The notes under the pieces are model-generated. The model was not told where the DNA came from. It ran no database searches and saw only the letters and a list, made by a program, of their open reading frames with translations. A program made the position numbers and the translations under genes. DNA of 60,043 bases from Candidatus Nomurabacteria bacterium (GTDB taxonomy: Bacteria; Patescibacteriota; Minisyncoccia; Phycocordibacterales; UBA9973), in the NCBI GenBank assembly GCA_943350445.1, contig CALRAE010000004.1, forward strand, positions 1-60,043, in the 5' to 3' direction. Position 1 is the stretch's first letter; each line of letters starts with the position of its first letter. Shown here one piece after another: positions 22,531-38,921 of the stretch.

Positions 22531-22540
22531 CTTAATTTTG

Positions 22541-22611
22541 TGCGGCCAGAGAGAATCGAACTCTCGTCTCATCCTTGGCAAGGACGTGTTCTACCACTAA
22601 ACCATGACCGC
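22541..22611 (-). tRNA. tRNA-Gly(GCC), CCA not encoded
   Basis: Cloverleaf GCGGTCA...TGGCCGCA; anticodon arm gtcct-tGCCa-aggat; GTTCGA T-loop. Confidence 0.95.
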
Positions 22612-22730
22612 AAAATTATTTTTAATCATTCAATTATATATTAAATTCAGCATATTGCAATTTTATATTCTGAGCTTATAAAATAACGTTATTTTACTAA
22701 AGATAAATATAATGTATAATTAAACATTAT

Positions 22731-22802
22731 GCACCCGTAGTGAAATGGATATCATACCCGCCTTCGAAGCGGTTGTTGGGGGTTCGAATCCCTCCGGGTG
22801 CA
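22731..22802 (+). tRNA. tRNA-Arg(TCG)
   Basis: GCACCCG...CGGGTGCA, anticodon loop ctTCGaa, GGTTCGAATCC. Confidence 0.95.
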
Positions 22803-22898
22803 CACGAAAGAGTAAATTTATTTACTCTTGTGAGGGTTTCGAAAGATTTTTTGTTATTTTACAAGATAAAATCAAAAAATACCTGGCCATGTAATGGC

Positions 22899-22918
22899 CG
22901 AATCCCTCCGGGTGCACA
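22899..22918 (+). repeat. 20-bp direct copy of the tRNA-Arg 3' end (att-like)
   Basis: cgaatccctccgggtgcaca identical to 22785-22804. Confidence 0.9.
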
Positions 22919-23117
22919 TCAGAAAGTTGTTCCAAAATTAATCATACCTGTCCTTTATTGAAACCTTATTAAATAATAGTTTTGTGTAAGAGTGTGGATA
23001 ACTATGTTGGTAATGTTTATAAAGGACATGTTTTATAATTGTCTTTTGGGGGGATTTTAACTAAAATATCTTGTGAGATAAGGATATTTTTATAAAAGAC
23101 ATCAAATATAGTACTTT

Positions 23118-23133
23118 TGTTTCACGTGAAACA
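23118..23133. promoter_or_regulatory. Perfect parS site; degenerate copies at 22471, 23144, 23250
   Basis: tgtttcacgtgaaaca is the canonical ParB-binding palindrome. Confidence 0.9.
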
Positions 23134-23185
23134 TATTTATTGCTGTTACTTGTGAAACGTTATAAAATATAGCTTTATAGTATAT

Positions 23186-23572
23186 ATGCCGAAAGTATTC
23201 ACCTCAGAAACTCAAAAAATAGGGGAAATAGGGGAGAATATAGCTGTAAAGTTTCTCATGAAACATGGTTTTGAGGTTTTAGACCGTAATTATACTAAAA
23301 AATGGGGTGAAATAGACATAGTGGCTCAAAAGGACACAAAAATTTACTTTATTGAGGTAAAAAGTATAAACGCCGAGATAGCAGGAGGGGAACATAGAGC
23401 CGAAGACAATATGCACCCGAGGAAATTGCAAAGACTAGCGCGAGTAATTCAGACATATCTTCTCTACAAGAAATGGTACGAGGGGGAATGGCAAGTTGAT
23501 TTATTGGTTATTTATTTAAATATGAAAAACAAAACTGCTCGAATAAAAGTAGTAAGTGATATTATTTTATGA
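23186..23572 (+). CDS. YraN-family (UPF0102) nuclease-like protein
   Basis: GEIGENIA, RNY...GEIDIVA, FIEVK. Confidence 0.92.
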   Translation: MPKVFTSETQKIGEIGENIAVKFLMKHGFEVLDRNYTKKWGEIDIVAQKDTKIYFIEVKSINAEIAGGEHRAEDNMHPRKLQRLARVIQTYLLYKKWYEGEWQVDLLVIYLNMKNKTARIKVVSDIIL

Positions 23573-23582
23573 TTCGAATCTG

Positions 23583-23653
23583 TGCGGGATAGGCGAATCG
23601 AACGCCTGCCAACAGTTTGGAAAACTGTAGTTCTACCACTAAACTAATCCCGC
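23583..23653 (-). tRNA. tRNA-Gly(TCC)
   Basis: GCGGGAT...ATCCCGCA; anticodon loop ttTCCaa. Confidence 0.95.
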
Positions 23654-23678
23654 TTATATAAAAACCTGTAAATAACGC

Positions 23679-23752
23679 TGGTCGGGCTGCTGGGAGTCGA
23701 ACCCAGCCTAAATGCTCCCAAAGCACTTGTACAACCGATATACTACAGCCCG
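23679..23752 (-). tRNA. tRNA-Pro(TGG), CCA encoded
   Basis: CGGGCTG...CAGCCCGACCA; loop ttTGGga. Confidence 0.93.
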
Positions 23753-33414: not shown

Positions 33415-35967
33415 ATGATAGCTAAAAATAAAACAATAAAATCCATTTCTGCACTTTTGGTTATGTCCATACTGATGCCGTCTTTTATTGTATTTTTTAG
33501 TCCAAAAAAAGCAGAAGCTACACTCCCGGTTGTAGACTATGCATTAAATGCCGCACTAAATCCTCCAACATGGACAACCAAAGCTCTTACTGCCATAGGT
33601 GTACCCTCAACGCTAACAAACACCCTTACTAATAGTAAGAGTTTTATAATGACCCTTCTGCGTGAGGTCTTGAAAATAGCCGCCAAAAGAGTCTTGGCAA
33701 GAATGACCCAAGCCACCATAAACTGGATCAATTCTGATTTTCATGGATCACCACTTTTTTTAACAAATCCCAGCTCTTTCTTTAGGGATATAGCCAAATC
33801 GGAAATCAGAAATCTGGTAGATATGATCGGCTACGATTCTTTTAAATATCCTTTTGGTCAACAGATCGCATTGAATATAATAAACAGCTACAAAAGACAG
33901 CTCGCAGATAATGCGCAATATAGTTTGAGTAAAGTAATAAATGATCCAGACCTTTTGAAACGCTACAGAAATGACTTCAATTATGGAGGGTGGAATGGAT
34001 TCTTGGTAAATACACAATACCCACAAAATAATTATATCGGATTTGAATCGACGATAATGTCAAACCTCGCAAGGAAGCTGGAAGGGACAGTACAAGCGCC
34101 AGCGCAAAAAATGCAAGGCCTCCTTCAGCAAGGTATGGGCTTCCTGTCTCCACAAACATGTCCAACAAACCCTGCATACAATAATGGCATAAATGAGTTT
34201 GTGAGACCGAGCTTTACGCCACAAAAGTTTGACTTTAAAGAACCGACAATATCCAACCCAGTACCTCGTAATGAGGACGGGGGAGAGGAACCAAGTGAAG
34301 CATGGACAACTCAACAACAACAATACGAAGCAGAGAAACAAAGAGCATATGACGCATATCAAACATCATGGAACACACAAGTGAGTGCCGACTCAGCTAA
34401 ATGGACTGAGACAAATACTTGCCCGGGTGGCTTAAAATCCACCACCCCTGGTGCAGTAGCGGCAAACCAAGTATTTAGCGCGCTCAATGTTCCTTTTCTA
34501 TCGACAGCTCTCGATGGGGCACTAGGAAACAGCTTGGCTGCTATATTTGATGCTTTGATAAATCACTTTATAGATAAAGGCTTGAATGGGCTTGCAGAAA
34601 CCATAAGTCCATCACCTTCAAATGACAACTGGAGTTATGATGGAAATAGTTTAAGTGGCACAAACACAACTTCTGGAGGAGTAAGCACTTTACGAATTCC
34701 GCAAAATGTCTCAGCTACCGTCGGTCAAATAACCAACACCATGATATCTGGTGGCACAGGACCTTATACGATTGTAAGCAGTGCTAATCAAAACCAACCC
34801 CAACCAAATACATCAATAGCAACTGTCCAAATATCAAATTCTGGGTCTGCTGGTCCCAAGCTCACGGTTACTGGTATCACTCCGGGTCAAACTTTTGTTG
34901 TAATAAAAGATTCATCGAGCGTGGTACAAACGGCTAGAGTTGATATCACGATATATGCCGTCGGGGCTTTGGTAGTTATTCCGCACAACATTTCAACCAA
35001 CCTAACTATTCCAATCACTGCGACCATATCTGGTGGCCAAGAACCTTATGTAATACAAAGACCCCCAAATGAAGCAGTAGCCATAGTAGCTTTTGCAGGC
35101 TCGAATCTGATTGTAAACGGTGTTGGAAGAGGAAACACCTTTATTGTAATAGAAGATTCATCTACCCCAATTAAAAAAACCACCACTGTACAAATTGCAA
35201 TAACTGGACCTGATGATCTAAACATCCCAGAAAACATTACAGCAAATGTCGGTCAGGTGACGAGTGTGCCTATATTGGGTGGTCTAGGACCCTATCGTAT
35301 TACCGACCAACAAGATGTAAGAATAGCGACCGGCCAAGTTTTCAACGCTTTTCAAGATACCCCAGCTACTCTAAAAATCACGGGTATCAAAGAAGGTGTC
35401 ACAGTAATTATGATCCAAGATTCATCTTCTCCAGTAAAAATTATGAGTACAAGCATCACAGTCATTGATGCCAAAACTTTATTAGTTACTCCACCAAATG
35501 TTTCAGCTAATATTGACCAGACAACCAACATGACCATCTCTGGCGGTATGGCACCTTACGCTATAGAAACCATACCAGACAGCACGATAGCAACCGCCCA
35601 AATTTCAGGCCCAAACCTCACAGTCGCTGGTAAAGCAACAGGACAAACAACTATGATAATCAAAGATTCATCGACCCCTACACCCAAAACTATTACTGTT
35701 CTGATCACCATAGGAGCTTTAAGTGTCGTACAGAATGTCACAGTAAATGCCAATGAATCACGCAACATAACCATAACAGGTGGCACAAAACCTTATAGTA
35801 TAGAAACTCCACCAAACACGACGGTGGCAACTGTACAGATTTCCACGACACCCCAAAACTCAAATATAATCACAATCACCGGTAAGGCAAAAGGGCAAAC
35901 AGGAATAGTGGTGAAGGATTCTTCAACGCCACCAAAAAGCACTGGTATTCAGATTACGGTGAATTAG
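33415..35967 (+). CDS. Large exported protein: helical N-domain plus five Ig-like repeats
   Basis: Signal peptide (AEA/TLPVVD); five repeats of ISGG..PY...IATVQI...G.T...IKDSS. Confidence 0.85.
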   Translation: MIAKNKTIKSISALLVMSILMPSFIVFFSPKKAEATLPVVDYALNAALNPPTWTTKALTAIGVPSTLTNTLTNSKSFIMTLLREVLKIAAKRVLARMTQATINWINSDFHGSPLFLTNPSSFFRDIAKSEIRNLVDMIGYDSFKYPFGQQIALNIINSYKRQLADNAQYSLSKVINDPDLLKRYRNDFNYGGWNGFLVNTQYPQNNYIGFESTIMSNLARKLEGTVQAPAQKMQGLLQQGMGFLSPQTCPTNPAYNNGINEFVRPSFTPQKFDFKEPTISNPVPRNEDGGEEPSEAWTTQQQQYEAEKQRAYDAYQTSWNTQVSADSAKWTETNTCPGGLKSTTPGAVAANQVFSALNVPFLSTALDGALGNSLAAIFDALINHFIDKGLNGLAETISPSPSNDNWSYDGNSLSGTNTTSGGVSTLRIPQNVSATVGQITNTMISGGTGPYTIVSSANQNQPQPNTSIATVQISNSGSAGPKLTVTGITPGQTFVVIKDSSSVVQTARVDITIYAVGALVVIPHNISTNLTIPITATISGGQEPYVIQRPPNEAVAIVAFAGSNLIVNGVGRGNTFIVIEDSSTPIKKTTTVQIAITGPDDLNIPENITANVGQVTSVPILGGLGPYRITDQQDVRIATGQVFNAFQDTPATLKITGIKEGVTVIMIQDSSSPVKIMSTSITVIDAKTLLVTPPNVSANIDQTTNMTISGGMAPYAIETIPDSTIATAQISGPNLTVAGKATGQTTMIIKDSSTPTPKTITVLITIGALSVVQNVTVNANESRNITITGGTKPYSIETPPNTTVATVQISTTPQNSNIITITGKAKGQTGIVVKDSSTPPKSTGIQITVN

Positions 35968-36000
35968 AGAGTAGTTTTAAAGTTCATAAAGTGAATTAAA

Positions 36001-36384
36001 ATGAAAGATTTTATTAACTGGCATAAAATAAAAAATAATATAGAGGGAAAAAGGCAGAGACTTAATTTTCAGATTCGCGACATATTATTTTGTTCAATTG
36101 GAGAGAATGTTGGTTTTGAACAAGACGGAAGAGGTCAAGAATTTTTACGACCAGTTGTTATCATTAAAAAATTCAATAAGGAAGTATTTTGGGGAGTGCC
36201 GCTTACTCATACAGAAAAAAAGGGGAAATATTATTTTAGTTTTAATTTAAATAATGAAGTAAGCGTCGCGATTCTCTCGCAGTTGAAGTTATTTGATGCA
36301 AAAAGAATAAAATACAAAATAGGCATGATAAACGAGAAAGATTTTGATATCCTCAAAGAAAAAATCAGGCAATTGCTTGCCTGA
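36001..36384 (+). CDS. PemK/MazF-like toxin (orphan)
   Basis: GENVGFEQDG...RPVVIIKK...GVPLT...ILSQLKLFDAKRI pattern. Confidence 0.82.
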   Translation: MKDFINWHKIKNNIEGKRQRLNFQIRDILFCSIGENVGFEQDGRGQEFLRPVVIIKKFNKEVFWGVPLTHTEKKGKYYFSFNLNNEVSVAILSQLKLFDAKRIKYKIGMINEKDFDILKEKIRQLLA

Positions 36385-36436
36385 TTTTTTCTTTGTTTAC
36401 CTCCACTTTCGTGGAGGAGGGCCGAAGCCATTTGTA
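36355..36436 (-). ncRNA. Candidate ~80-nt convergent structured RNA (putative antitoxin)
   Basis: Upstream promoter; hairpins with UUCG, GAAA and GCAA loops on the minus strand; U-tract end. Confidence 0.6.
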
Positions 36437-36441
36437 AGTAA

Positions 36442-36469
36442 AGTATAGCAAACCGGAAATAAATGTCAA
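36442..36469 (-). promoter_or_regulatory. Sigma70 promoter TTGACA-N16-TATACT with extended -10 TG
   Basis: Direct sequence. Confidence 0.75.
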
Positions 36470-36539
36470 ATAGGATAAAATAGTGCTAAAATATAAACGG
36501 GTTTCAAAGTAAAAAGTTCATAAAGTTTTTTTAGTAAAA

Positions 36540-38921
36540 ATGAGCAAAACAATTACCAAACTAATCCCATACTTCCTAGTACTCATCATCATGGTCGGGC
36601 TCTTTGCTCCGATGGTGCAAGTGTATGCGCAAGAGGCAGGAGCCCCAGTAAACCCACCAGCAGGAGGAGCACCAGCGGCGGGTGGAACGCCACCAGCTGT
36701 TCAGCCGCCAGCAACGAATGCTCCACCTGCTGCGGGGACACCAGCAACACCCAAACAAACATTAACATTAACAACAACTGGAGGCTCTGCACTAGCGGAC
36801 AACAATGGAAGTTGTTTAAATCTCGTTACAGGAAACGTGGAAGATTGTCTAGTAAAAATAACTTATTATTTATTTTACGTTCTTCCATCTTTATTGCTTA
36901 CTTTAGTAGCAAAATTATTTAACATACTTTTATCTCTTACATTAAGTAGCCCATTGTATAATGCTTCTTTTGTTGCTGAATCGTGGACAGTTGTTCGAGA
37001 CCTTTCAAATATTTTCTTTATACTTATCTTGCTCTATGTAGCTATTCAAACAATCTTGGGGCTAGGTCACGAAACTAAAAAAATAATAGTTCAGGTGATA
37101 GTCATGGCATTATTGATAAACTTTTCGATGTTCTTCGCTAAAGTAGTTATCGACAGTTCTAATATTCTGGCGTTAGTTTTTTACAATAAAATTGACTCGA
37201 AAACAAATGATTACATACCATCCACTAATGTTAACAAAATAGGAGTGCAAGAAAAAGATTTTACGGGGGCAATGGTGTCCGCTTTTGACCCCACTAGATT
37301 AATGACTGCAGAATTCTTTAAGAAAGCCAAGGAAAAAACCCAGTCAGTGGGTGTAGGCACATTAGGCACTGCTGGTTATGTAGCAGGAGGGGCATATATA
37401 GGAAGTGCCTTTTTCCCAATAGTGGGAACAGCAATAGGGGCTGGTGTTGGATATGGAGTATCCAAAGTAGTGGGTTTATTTATAACTACCGACAAAGTTC
37501 CACCAGGATTGATGATTGGAATTATTATTAGTGCTGGATTAGTGATGTTTTTTGCCGCATATTGCTTTTTCGTAGCTGGCATGAGTTTTTTGAGCAGATT
37601 GATTGAGCTTTGGATATTGATTATCTTTTCTCCTTTTGCTTTTATGTCTTTTACATTACCAAAATTAAGTGGGATTCCTAGTATAGGTTGGGATGAATGG
37701 TTAAAACGTTTACTGAAACTTTCATTCATGGCACCAGTATTTATGTTCTTCTTGTATTTAATATTTAAATTAATAAATACAAACCTATTTCAGACTTTCA
37801 TGGACAGAACCTATGACAATCAAGGAACACTTGAAGCAATGGTACTCATAATATTGCCATCATTAGTAATATTGATTCTTCTTAACAGGGCGACAAAATT
37901 TGCCAAGGATGCGTCAGGAGAGTTGGGAGGAATGGTAATAGGTGCAGGAAAAATGGCTGCAGGACTCGCTGTCGGTGGGGCAGCTCTGGGTGGGGCAGCT
38001 CTGTTGAGGGGTAGTGTTGGAGCCTTCATGAAAGGAGCATCAACTGGGGATACAGCAGCTAATAGAATAGCAGCAAATAGTAATATACTTAATAATCCTA
38101 CTGCAAGCAAAATAGCTAAAATGAAAGCCGGAATAGACCTAGGTGCAGGAAAAATGGCGCAGTTGGGAATAGGAAGATTTACTTCTGAAAATATACAGAA
38201 CTGGGTAGGTAGTAAAATAAATGACGATCAAACACACGTAGAAGGCGCAGCTCACGCAAGACACACATTAGATGAAACTGCAAACACACTTTACCAAGGA
38301 AGGAGTTATGAGAAACTTTCTGGGCCTGAAAGAATTAAGGTTCAAAATAGAATTGATCAAGATATTTTAACAAGAAACAAAATTCCAATACAAGTTCCAG
38401 TAAGAGGTGCAAATAATCAACCAGTGATGCAAAATGGTCAACCAGTACTGCAAGCTTATGACTATGGAAATAAACAAAAATTCTCAGAATTAAGTGACGA
38501 CGCTAAAACAGCTTTAACTGCTAGTTTAACTACTATGACACCAACACAAAGAGCTGCAATATCTCATGGCTCTATACAAACAATCACAGAGTCAAAAATC
38601 AAGCAGGGTGTGGTTAGTACTCTAATGCAAGCTTCGAGAACTGGAAGCTATGACGTCAGAAATATCGCCAAACTCATAGCAAGTGAACAAAGCACTGGTT
38701 TTAATAAGCTTACTATTGGCTTAATGGCTGCTGTAGCCATGGGCATGCGTGGTGGACTTAAAACAGCGGAAATAAATCACGGTGAAGGACAAGGAAGCTT
38801 CTTTAAAGACTTGGGGAACACTCTTACAGATGCGCTGAAGAGTGCTAAAATAAGTGTTGATCTTTCTCATGTTGGTGAAGAAAAGAAAGAAGATGGAAAG
38901 GGTGGCGGAGGACATCATTAG
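36540..38921 (+). CDS. VirB6/TrbL-like polytopic membrane protein
   Basis: W.VVRDLSN, ALLINFS, R..ELW.L.IFSP.AF, multiple TMs, Gly/Ala-rich tail. Confidence 0.75.
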   Translation: MSKTITKLIPYFLVLIIMVGLFAPMVQVYAQEAGAPVNPPAGGAPAAGGTPPAVQPPATNAPPAAGTPATPKQTLTLTTTGGSALADNNGSCLNLVTGNVEDCLVKITYYLFYVLPSLLLTLVAKLFNILLSLTLSSPLYNASFVAESWTVVRDLSNIFFILILLYVAIQTILGLGHETKKIIVQVIVMALLINFSMFFAKVVIDSSNILALVFYNKIDSKTNDYIPSTNVNKIGVQEKDFTGAMVSAFDPTRLMTAEFFKKAKEKTQSVGVGTLGTAGYVAGGAYIGSAFFPIVGTAIGAGVGYGVSKVVGLFITTDKVPPGLMIGIIISAGLVMFFAAYCFFVAGMSFLSRLIELWILIIFSPFAFMSFTLPKLSGIPSIGWDEWLKRLLKLSFMAPVFMFFLYLIFKLINTNLFQTFMDRTYDNQGTLEAMVLIILPSLVILILLNRATKFAKDASGELGGMVIGAGKMAAGLAVGGAALGGAALLRGSVGAFMKGASTGDTAANRIAANSNILNNPTASKIAKMKAGIDLGAGKMAQLGIGRFTSENIQNWVGSKINDDQTHVEGAAHARHTLDETANTLYQGRSYEKLSGPERIKVQNRIDQDILTRNKIPIQVPVRGANNQPVMQNGQPVLQAYDYGNKQKFSELSDDAKTALTASLTTMTPTQRAAISHGSIQTITESKIKQGVVSTLMQASRTGSYDVRNIAKLIASEQSTGFNKLTIGLMAAVAMGMRGGLKTAEINHGEGQGSFFKDLGNTLTDALKSAKISVDLSHVGEEKKEDGKGGGGHH

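Follow-up and report, generated by a model that had tools for sequence, protein, structure and literature searches.

In a stretch of 60,043 nucleotides from a Candidatus Nomurabacteria bacterium (contig CALRAE010000004.1 of assembly GCA_943350445.1, positions 1 to 60,043; hereafter the window), a solitary gene for a MazF/PemK-family endoribonuclease is faced by a convergent gene for a structured RNA of about 78 nt, and this RNA is quite probably the toxin's antitoxin. We base this reading of the sequence on the conserved partnership of the two genes, the lack of a protein partner, a population behaviour like that of toxin-antitoxin (TA) modules, and the RNA outlasting the decay of the toxin. 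MazF is commonly taught as the model type II toxin, and 'orphan' MazF genes tend to be put down to incomplete annotation; in the present case a whole subfamily of MazF, in the Candidate Phyla Radiation (CPR) and on plasmids and in a prophage of Campylobacterota, appears to carry a small structured RNA in place of a protein antitoxin. The features of the module in the window are as follows.

36001-36384, plus strand: MazF/PemK-family endoribonuclease gene, 127 amino acids (Pfam, PDB profile, AlphaFold2 and Foldseek).
36464-36469, minus strand: -35 box TTGACA of the small-RNA promoter (promoter scan).
36442-36450, minus strand: extended -10 box TGcTATACT (promoter scan).
36430-36435, minus strand: predicted start (A at 36435) and single-stranded 5' tail ACAAAU, 6 nt past the -10 box.
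36420-36429, minus strand: hairpin P1, GGC-UUCG-GCC (arms 36420-36422 and 36427-36429; fold and covariation).
36400-36417, minus strand: hairpin P2, CCUCCAC-GAAA-GUGGAGG, 7 bp (arms 36400-36406 and 36411-36417; fold and covariation).
36354-36395, both strands: hairpin P3, 19 bp, with a GCAA loop on the minus strand (arms 36354-36372 and 36377-36395; terminator scans and fold).
36358-36435, minus strand: predicted small RNA of about 78 nt (from promoter and terminator; 3' end approximate, within the U-tract).

An earlier note on this DNA had proposed a minus-strand promoter at 36469-36442, and the promoter scan found it: TTGACA-N16-TATACT with a TG extension matches at 11 of 12 positions, which puts it first among four promoter-like sites in 35500-37000. 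The transcript most likely begins at the A of ACAAAU (36435). All three hairpins that the note described are present, the last with a stem of 19 bp and not 18, and their UUCG, GAAA and GCAA loops are indeed canonical tetraloops on the minus strand only. The arms of P3 are 100% complementary, with U-tracts on both strands; P3 holds the toxin stop codon (36382-36384) and spans the final 31 nt of the coding sequence (CDS), so that the proposed overlap with the 3' end of the toxin gene is borne out. The plus-strand scan flagged P3 as a terminator too, and we read it as a bidirectional terminator common to the toxin and RNA genes. The RNA of the minus strand has a fold energy of -43.6 kcal/mol (z = -8.0; 0 of 200 shuffles did equally well), and fold energy cannot assign the strand because the plus strand folds nearly as well (-41.5 kcal/mol, z = -7.8). 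Over the element, Rfam returned no match near the gathering score (mir-627 at 26.3 bits versus 86, RAGATH-19 at 21.4 versus 85.6). No direct repeats or tandem array were found beside the window toxin gene, in keeping with the description of the RNA as non-repetitive, although two relatives (L059 and L026) have two units. Two other candidates were rejected. A leaderless open reading frame (ORF) starting from the AUG inside ACAAAUGG was discarded because many elements read AAAC at the same place, so that this AUG is not a conserved start codon; and mimicry of the 16S 3' end by the CCUCC stretch (an anti-Shine-Dalgarno) was dropped, the linker being CGA or UCG in other subfamilies.

The element can be taken for more than chance because it is conserved in about 100 related loci, and not from the window sequence alone. 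We fetched 70 homologue loci, 41 from species-representative genomes and 29 from 401 genomes of the window's class. In the first group the toxin relatives have 37-75% identity; many come from Nomura-, Yonath-, Adler-, Vogel-, Komeili-, Staskawicz-, Taylor-, Zambryski-, Falkow-, Sung- and Peribacteria, and further sources are records labelled Saccharibacteria and metagenome-assembled genomes (MAGs) of Campylobacterales/Sulfurimonas. The 160 nt beyond each toxin stop have the same layout almost everywhere in these 41 loci: first a long hairpin across the stop, then one that is GC-rich and varies in sequence, and GAGG-GCCGAAGCC-ATTTGTA, followed after about 6 nt by the reverse complement of a -10 box and, about 17 nt further on, by TGTCAA. 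A simple anchor expression of this layout matched in 31 of the 41. We built a covariance model, R1, of the tail, P1 and P2 from 13 sequences; at E <= 0.001 it recovered 50 places in 73 sources, namely the window (42.4 bits, E 8.6e-12), 48 of the 70 homologue loci and one remnant. The remaining 22 loci belong to divergent subfamilies and were read by eye from the printed sequence and not scored; they present a convergent promoter-like site, an A/U-rich tail, a different P1 (UCC/GGA, UGCC/GGCA, CGAC/GUCG, CGGC/GCCG or GGAC/GUCC at the same place) and a P2. By model or by eye, the element thus lies on the opposite strand just beyond the toxin stop codon in 70 of 70 fetched loci. Multicopy genomes supplied 30 further paralogue copies at 28-45% identity, of which 26 were positive in a scan for promoter plus fold and two more have an element visible by eye; in the other two the scan halted at an internal stop and left them unassessed. 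The 5' tail is conserved as ACAAA[U/C], with AUAUU or GAAAUU in distant subfamilies. The downstream alignment that the note had called for therefore finds the convergent promoter, the 5' tail and the hairpins kept behind essentially every homologue examined.

Covariation, the second check it had named, came out clearly positive. A plain MAFFT alignment misaligned P2, and a covariance-model alignment was used in its place (50 rows, 45 distinct; such fitting leans toward the structure of the model). In it, 99.7% of the cells pair and 9 of 10 pairs have both-sided, compensatory changes, including G-C to C-G and U-A changes in P1 and changes in all seven pairs of P2; 0 of 500 shuffles reached any observed pairing measure, and slid partner columns pair at only 43-62%. 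RNAalifold run on the plain MAFFT alignment recovered P1 and P3, with compensatory changes in 14 of 16 predicted pairs. Among 47 distinct elements there are 28 distinct 5' arms of P2, and the P2 loop is of GNRA or UNCG type in 35 of the 47 on the RNA (toxin-antisense) strand versus 2 of 47 on the toxin strand. A -10 box (at least 4 of 6 positions) stands in 41 of these elements, a -35 box (same threshold) in 43 and both in 39; 29 have the TGn extension. The two boxes are set 16 nt apart in 27 elements, 17 nt apart in 18 and 18 nt apart in 2; the A of ACAAAU follows the -10 box after 6 nt in 39 elements, after 7 nt in 7 and after 5 nt in 1. Since promoter placement is conserved and the tetraloops are biased to one strand, we take the minus strand as the functional one, carrying what is predicted to be an RNA gene whose own sigma-70 promoter keeps a constant spacing to a conserved 5' tail.

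The RNA is tied to the toxin across genomes. The toxin protein was found in 72 of the 401 genomes of the class, at 141 places, 13 of which have internal stop codons, and in 3 of the 6 genomes of the window's genus, the window counted. A search of the 401 genomes for the 14-mer AAAYGGCTTCGGCC gave 44 matches, spread over 39 genomes, and 25 of these matches adjoin a toxin match, on the opposite strand and just past it. Of the other 19, 17 are without promoter or hairpins, most of them apparently inside other genes, and two are remnants of toxin deletions. In these two (L080, G199:C8, and L087, G225:C14) a complete RNA element stands beside the last 17-20 codons of a deleted toxin; the orphan RNA of L087 has a promoter matching at 12 of 12 positions, and in both another gene abuts the toxin remnant. 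The RNA has likewise been retained behind toxin genes with premature stops or frameshifts, by R1 at L025, L043, L050, L051 and L073; behind the broken toxin of L026 it scored weakly (E 0.36). Matches to a 16-mer, ACAAAYGGCTTCGGCC, in 18 stretches of viral contigs were set aside as chance, being without toxin match, promoter or hairpins.

Copies also accumulate. Multicopy genomes reach seven matches (G325), and five copies lie within 6.5 kb in G192:C5; there (L100, G192:C5:1-7200) and in L101 and L110-L112, diverged toxin-RNA modules form arrays of up to five in mixed orientation, each paralogue with its own RNA and a different tail and P1. In these array paralogues the terminator is P2 itself, with hardly any overlap between RNA and CDS. 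Two loci, L059 (G076:C6) and L026, have two tandem tail-P1-P2 units behind one toxin; the units differ in L059, and the second unit of both duplications is preceded by a similar A-rich tail (AAAAAU, ACAAUU). The module appears to be an accessory, mobile unit of about 520 bp and two genes.

In Sulfurimonas/Campylobacterales MAGs the PemK domain stands in one uninterrupted frame with an upstream sugar-nucleotide enzyme. The four fusion loci (L019:1905-2984, L037, L038:2287-3387 and L033:1915-3459) represent two independent in-frame junctions, the partner being RmlD in one of them and a CTP_transf_3 cytidylyltransferase in the other three, which are homologous; all keep the convergent RNA, which is partly antisense to a short C-terminal extension. 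These fused forms are known only from the fetched loci.

We then consider the protein neighbours. The toxin had been called an orphan without room for an antitoxin gene upstream, and this holds: the previous ORF, an 850-residue gene, ends at 35967 and the ATG stands at 36001, leaving 33 nt between them. The regions upstream of the toxin show no relation from one locus to another. Clustering of 666 ORFs of at least 40 residues within 900 nt of the toxin in 71 loci returned no ORF family in more than 11 of them; the cluster of that size is made up of ORFs that overlap the conserved toxin gene on the minus strand, and we read them as its antisense shadows, and the next, genuine, neighbour family occurs in five syntenic loci. 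The window's genome (99.6% complete, 617 kb) holds one PemK gene, the window's own, and no MazE above cut-off; its only PF04014 match is sub-threshold and lies inside a 907-residue open frame. A protein antitoxin encoded elsewhere, which would have counted against the proposal, was thus not found by either route. With its conserved promoter, tail and hairpins, its compensatory changes and the lack of a conserved protein partner, the RNA is well supported as the dedicated partner of the toxin.

The toxin itself is, as far as its sequence and modelled fold allow it to be judged, a catalytically intact MazF-family endoribonuclease. The ORF at 36001-36384 matches PF02452 (PemK_toxin) with E 2.1e-9 and 38 bits against a cut-off of 23.1, in agreement with the PemK/MazF-like assignment of the earlier note. 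A profile of 34 relatives placed Bacillus subtilis MazF (4mdx, 1ne8) as the best solved relative (4mdx, E 2.3e-4), aligning the Arg of the family's LRPV and the Thr of its PLT motif with VRPV and AIT of the B. subtilis protein. R50 and T69 are invariant across the 34 aligned sequences, and their equivalents are reported to be catalytic in work on the B. subtilis MazF-RNA structure (4MDX). An AlphaFold2 model (pLDDT, the predicted local distance difference test, 83.2) has the MazF barrel with an extra N-terminal helix (residues 3-17), and its best Foldseek matches are the MazF proteins of Staphylococcus aureus, B. subtilis and Escherichia coli (probability 1.00, TM 0.65-0.81). The b1-b2 loop (GENVGFEQDGRG..LRP) is five residues longer, invariant in sequence and of low confidence in the model. 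No PADLOC model matched the toxin at E <= 0.1, and NCBIfam gave a weak MazF equivalog match only (19.5 bits versus a cut-off of 120). The toxin is not a member of the ToxN/AbiQ/CptN/TenpN families: Pfam returns PemK alone, and PADLOC nothing. In many toxin genes a -10-like box ends 6-10 nt before the ATG (14 nt in L008) without a Shine-Dalgarno sequence (L008, L009, L012, L016, L018, L021, L022, L025, L028, L030, L031, L032, L040 and L042), which suggests leaderless or near-leaderless toxin mRNAs in many loci; the window toxin gene may be transcribed from the upstream gene.

How, then, might the RNA act? In the mechanism that we propose, the convergent RNA would stand in for the MazE protein and neutralise the toxin through direct contact with it, as the RNAs of type III systems do. 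The 5' ACAAAU tail would fill the substrate groove of MazF as an uncleavable substrate or a mimic of the product, and the rigid tetraloop hairpins P1 and P2 would make the binding tight and specific to the cognate toxin; the small overlap with the 3' end of the toxin mRNA would simply follow from the common terminator or would add a secondary layer of control. That the module is an RNA-antitoxin system acting by direct RNA-protein inhibition is our tentative preference, at a little short of an even chance. More tentative still is the full version: a widespread class of TA system whose canonical MazF would be inhibited by a convergent RNA, present as one copy and transcribed independently, that binds the protein with ACAAAU in its groove while variation in P1 and the tail insulates paralogues from one another.

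Direct binding is favoured on several grounds. The tail and P1 are conserved in sequence though they lie outside the overlap with the toxin mRNA, and the tandem P1-P2 duplications of L059 and L026 resemble ToxI repeats. UUCG and GNRA loops are closed and make poor kissing partners. No excess complementarity was found between the RNA's 5' part and the toxin mRNA start: a par-like pairing of the first 48 nt of the RNA with the first 45 nt of the mRNA was tried and rejected, being no better than in shuffles (-10.2 versus -10.5 kcal/mol over 37 pairs). The tail type tracks the b1-b2 loop variant, EQDG going with ACAAAU-GGC and E[IV]SG with (A/G)UAUU. Finally, there is the precedent of the ToxN-type relatives of the MazF fold, which are inhibited by direct RNA binding. 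As to the groove, the nearest solved MazF proteins cut U^ACAU. The title of a published study gives UACAU for S. aureus MazF. The (U)ACAAAU tail resembles such a site, and we speculate that an RNA starting at the A would mimic the 3' cleavage product.

Several points weigh against direct binding. The strictly convergent, overlapping layout is a hallmark of Gram-positive type I systems such as par RNAI/RNAII and txpA/RatA, and of no known type III system. Where P2 is the terminator, the plus strand is without an obvious terminator, and read-through of the toxin mRNA may be fully complementary to the RNA. The association of tail and loop types could be explained by common descent of linked genes. 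The covariance alignment, fitted to its model, is biased toward pairing. And the cjrA/cjpT pair of the Campylobacter jejuni plasmid pVir, a possible relative, was reportedly classed as type I.

The layout, the possible read-through and the reported class of the pVir pair speak for a cis-antisense, type I-like mode, in which the RNA would pair, through the region of the common terminator, with the 3' end or 3' untranslated region (UTR) of the toxin mRNA and cause its decay or block its expression, with P1 and P2 serving only to stabilise the RNA. We consider this less likely than direct binding, and the strongest of the alternatives. The cis-encoded RNA is complementary to the toxin mRNA across P3, over the final 31 nt of the CDS; the orientation is the same in every locus, and in the P2-terminator subfamilies the toxin 3' UTR may span the whole RNA gene. 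Convergent genes that overlap at their 3' ends, and for which a bidirectional terminator can be common to both, are described for par RNAI/RNAII and txpA/RatA, and SymE, an enzyme-sized type I toxin, is one known exception to the rule of hydrophobic peptides. Against cis-antisense action, an RNA that is complementary by construction has no need of a conserved tail or of compensated P1 and P2 stems, nor of a P1 sequence kept across proteins that are 40-60% identical. The overlap in the window is the terminator hairpin only, about 35 nt that are self-paired in both RNAs; the loops are stable tetraloops and not U-turn kissing loops, the search for 5' complementarity was negative, and the tandem P1-P2 duplication is left unexplained.

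It is more improbable that the RNA is a partner of the protein but not its antitoxin, the two forming a ribonucleoprotein with another job, such as a phage-defence nuclease or sensor, or the protein processing the RNA into a regulator. Linkage and co-variation do show partnership and not the direction of the effect, and in-frame fusions to sugar-nucleotide enzymes are odd for a free toxin; however, the catalytic Arg and Thr are retained, toxin pseudogenes and deletions with the RNA kept fit TA decay, and a patchy, multicopy spread that takes in plasmids and a prophage is what TA modules typically show. It is very improbable that the hairpins are mere plus-strand terminators or 3' UTR, or a chance small RNA, with a protein antitoxin elsewhere: the plus strand does fold almost equally well and loose promoter matches are about as many as in shuffled sequence (4 versus 3.5), but against this stand the fixed distance of both promoter boxes in 39 of 47 elements, the strand bias of the tetraloops, the order of the plus strand, where P3 and its U-tract precede P2 and P1 and would therefore leave them untranscribed, and the absence of a conserved protein neighbour or of a MazE above cut-off in the window's genome.

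Set beside known systems, the module resembles several in part. It has in common with type III systems (ToxIN, AbiQ/antiQ, CptIN and TenpIN) an endoribonuclease of the wider MazF/CcdB-like fold, an RNA antitoxin, established there and proposed here, an A-rich motif at the edge of each RNA unit and, in L059 and L026, tandem units. It differs from them in that its toxin is a PemK/MazF protein by Pfam without a PADLOC match, that the window RNA is a single unit and no array, and that this RNA lies downstream, convergent and under its own promoter, whereas the type III RNA lies upstream, in the same transcript, before a terminator. With the Gram-positive type I systems (par RNAI/RNAII-Fst, txpA/RatA and bsrG/SR4) it has in common the convergent genes, the 3' overlap and a bidirectional terminator that can serve both. 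Unlike theirs, which are small hydrophobic peptides, the window toxin is a 127-residue protein with the modelled fold of a soluble nuclease; the part of the window RNA outside the overlap is its most conserved, and the RNA has no counterpart of the par 5' repeats. From type II MazEF it has the MazF fold and catalytic residues, the nearest structures being the B. subtilis, S. aureus and E. coli proteins, and it departs from that system in the extra N-terminal helix, the longer invariant b1-b2 loop and the lack of an adjacent MazE or conserved protein gene, with none above cut-off in the genome.

Cultured Campylobacterota have homologues on mobile DNA: on plasmids of Nitratiruptor and Helicobacter, on pVir of Campylobacter jejuni and in the C. 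jejuni prophage CJIE4. On two Nitratiruptor plasmids the toxin has 44% identity, and AUAAAU, P1 and P2 lie behind a TGTATAAT box. The pVir homologue (37% identity over residues 4-102) is annotated as PemK/MazF, is the sole PemK-family gene of the plasmid and has no annotated gene within 233 nt upstream; on the opposite strand downstream lies TTGATT-N17-TGATATAAT, followed by hairpins that reach the toxin stop codon. The prophage homologue has 36% identity, and a TGATATAAT box is seen there too. The pVir and CJIE4 RNAs are apparently longer, with about 35 extra 5' nt, and are without the ACAAAU-GGCUUCGGCC signature.

A pair named cjrA/cjpT on pVir, an RNA antitoxin and a protein toxin, was reportedly described in 2016 and classed as type I. 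The literature that we searched mentions CjrA only as an antitoxin of the antisense RNA kind, belonging to a type I system of pVir, and one paper gives the CJIE4 MazF protein (CJE1470) as present in 5 of 5 isolates tested, with no MazE gene in the prophage. The full texts that we searched do not name cjpT. We think it rather likely that cjpT is the pVir PemK gene, whose convergent downstream promoter and hairpins are a likeness to the window module, while its apparently longer RNA, without ACAAAU-GGCUUCGGCC, is a difference. If the two genes are the same, the window module is distantly related to an RNA antitoxin and protein toxin that have been validated by experiment. The earlier note had thought that a downstream, convergent, non-repetitive RNA partner would be a different architecture. 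The dedicated partner is well supported, as set out above, and the architecture may have a precedent in the convergent promoter and hairpins at the pVir homologue. In a search of full-text literature, no account turned up of MazF/PemK toxins paired with a convergent RNA in CPR bacteria; as far as that search shows, the CPR-wide distribution, the conserved fold and the covariation of the RNA are undescribed. In a C. jejuni megaplasmid (NZ_CP068568, L097) and about 30 similar Campylobacter plasmid records, the toxin match is in two pieces and a 53-residue 'hypothetical protein' alone is annotated; downstream there are still a GC hairpin and a conserved stretch of UUGGCUCAUUU, and the toxin there is probably a decayed copy.

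The RNA is thus a motif with strong covariation support and no Rfam family. Should it bind the protein, the MazF fold proper would join the ToxN-type toxins as an RNA-inhibited nuclease, and the border between type I and type III systems would blur; CPR bacteria would then have, as their main MazF configuration, a type III mechanism combined with the gene arrangement of type I, and the 'orphan MazF' of C. jejuni pVir and CJIE4 would need re-reading. Direct binding would also provide a minimal RNA inhibitor, of about 45 nt, of a sequence-specific RNase, with natural sets of paralogues for studies of specificity. Cultured relatives are available on a Nitratiruptor plasmid, on pVir and in CJIE4.

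In the window the module stands between two large genes that look like part of a cell-surface or secretion cluster. Upstream, 33415-35967 encodes the 850-residue protein, with a signal- or transmembrane-like N-terminus, repeated units of about 90 residues and one match to PF13629 (pilus N-terminal region); downstream, 36540-38921 encodes a 793-residue multi-pass membrane protein without a Pfam match. Elsewhere in the window, 22540-23752 holds a cluster of four tRNA genes (Gly-GCC, Arg-TCG, Gly-TCC and Pro-TGG).

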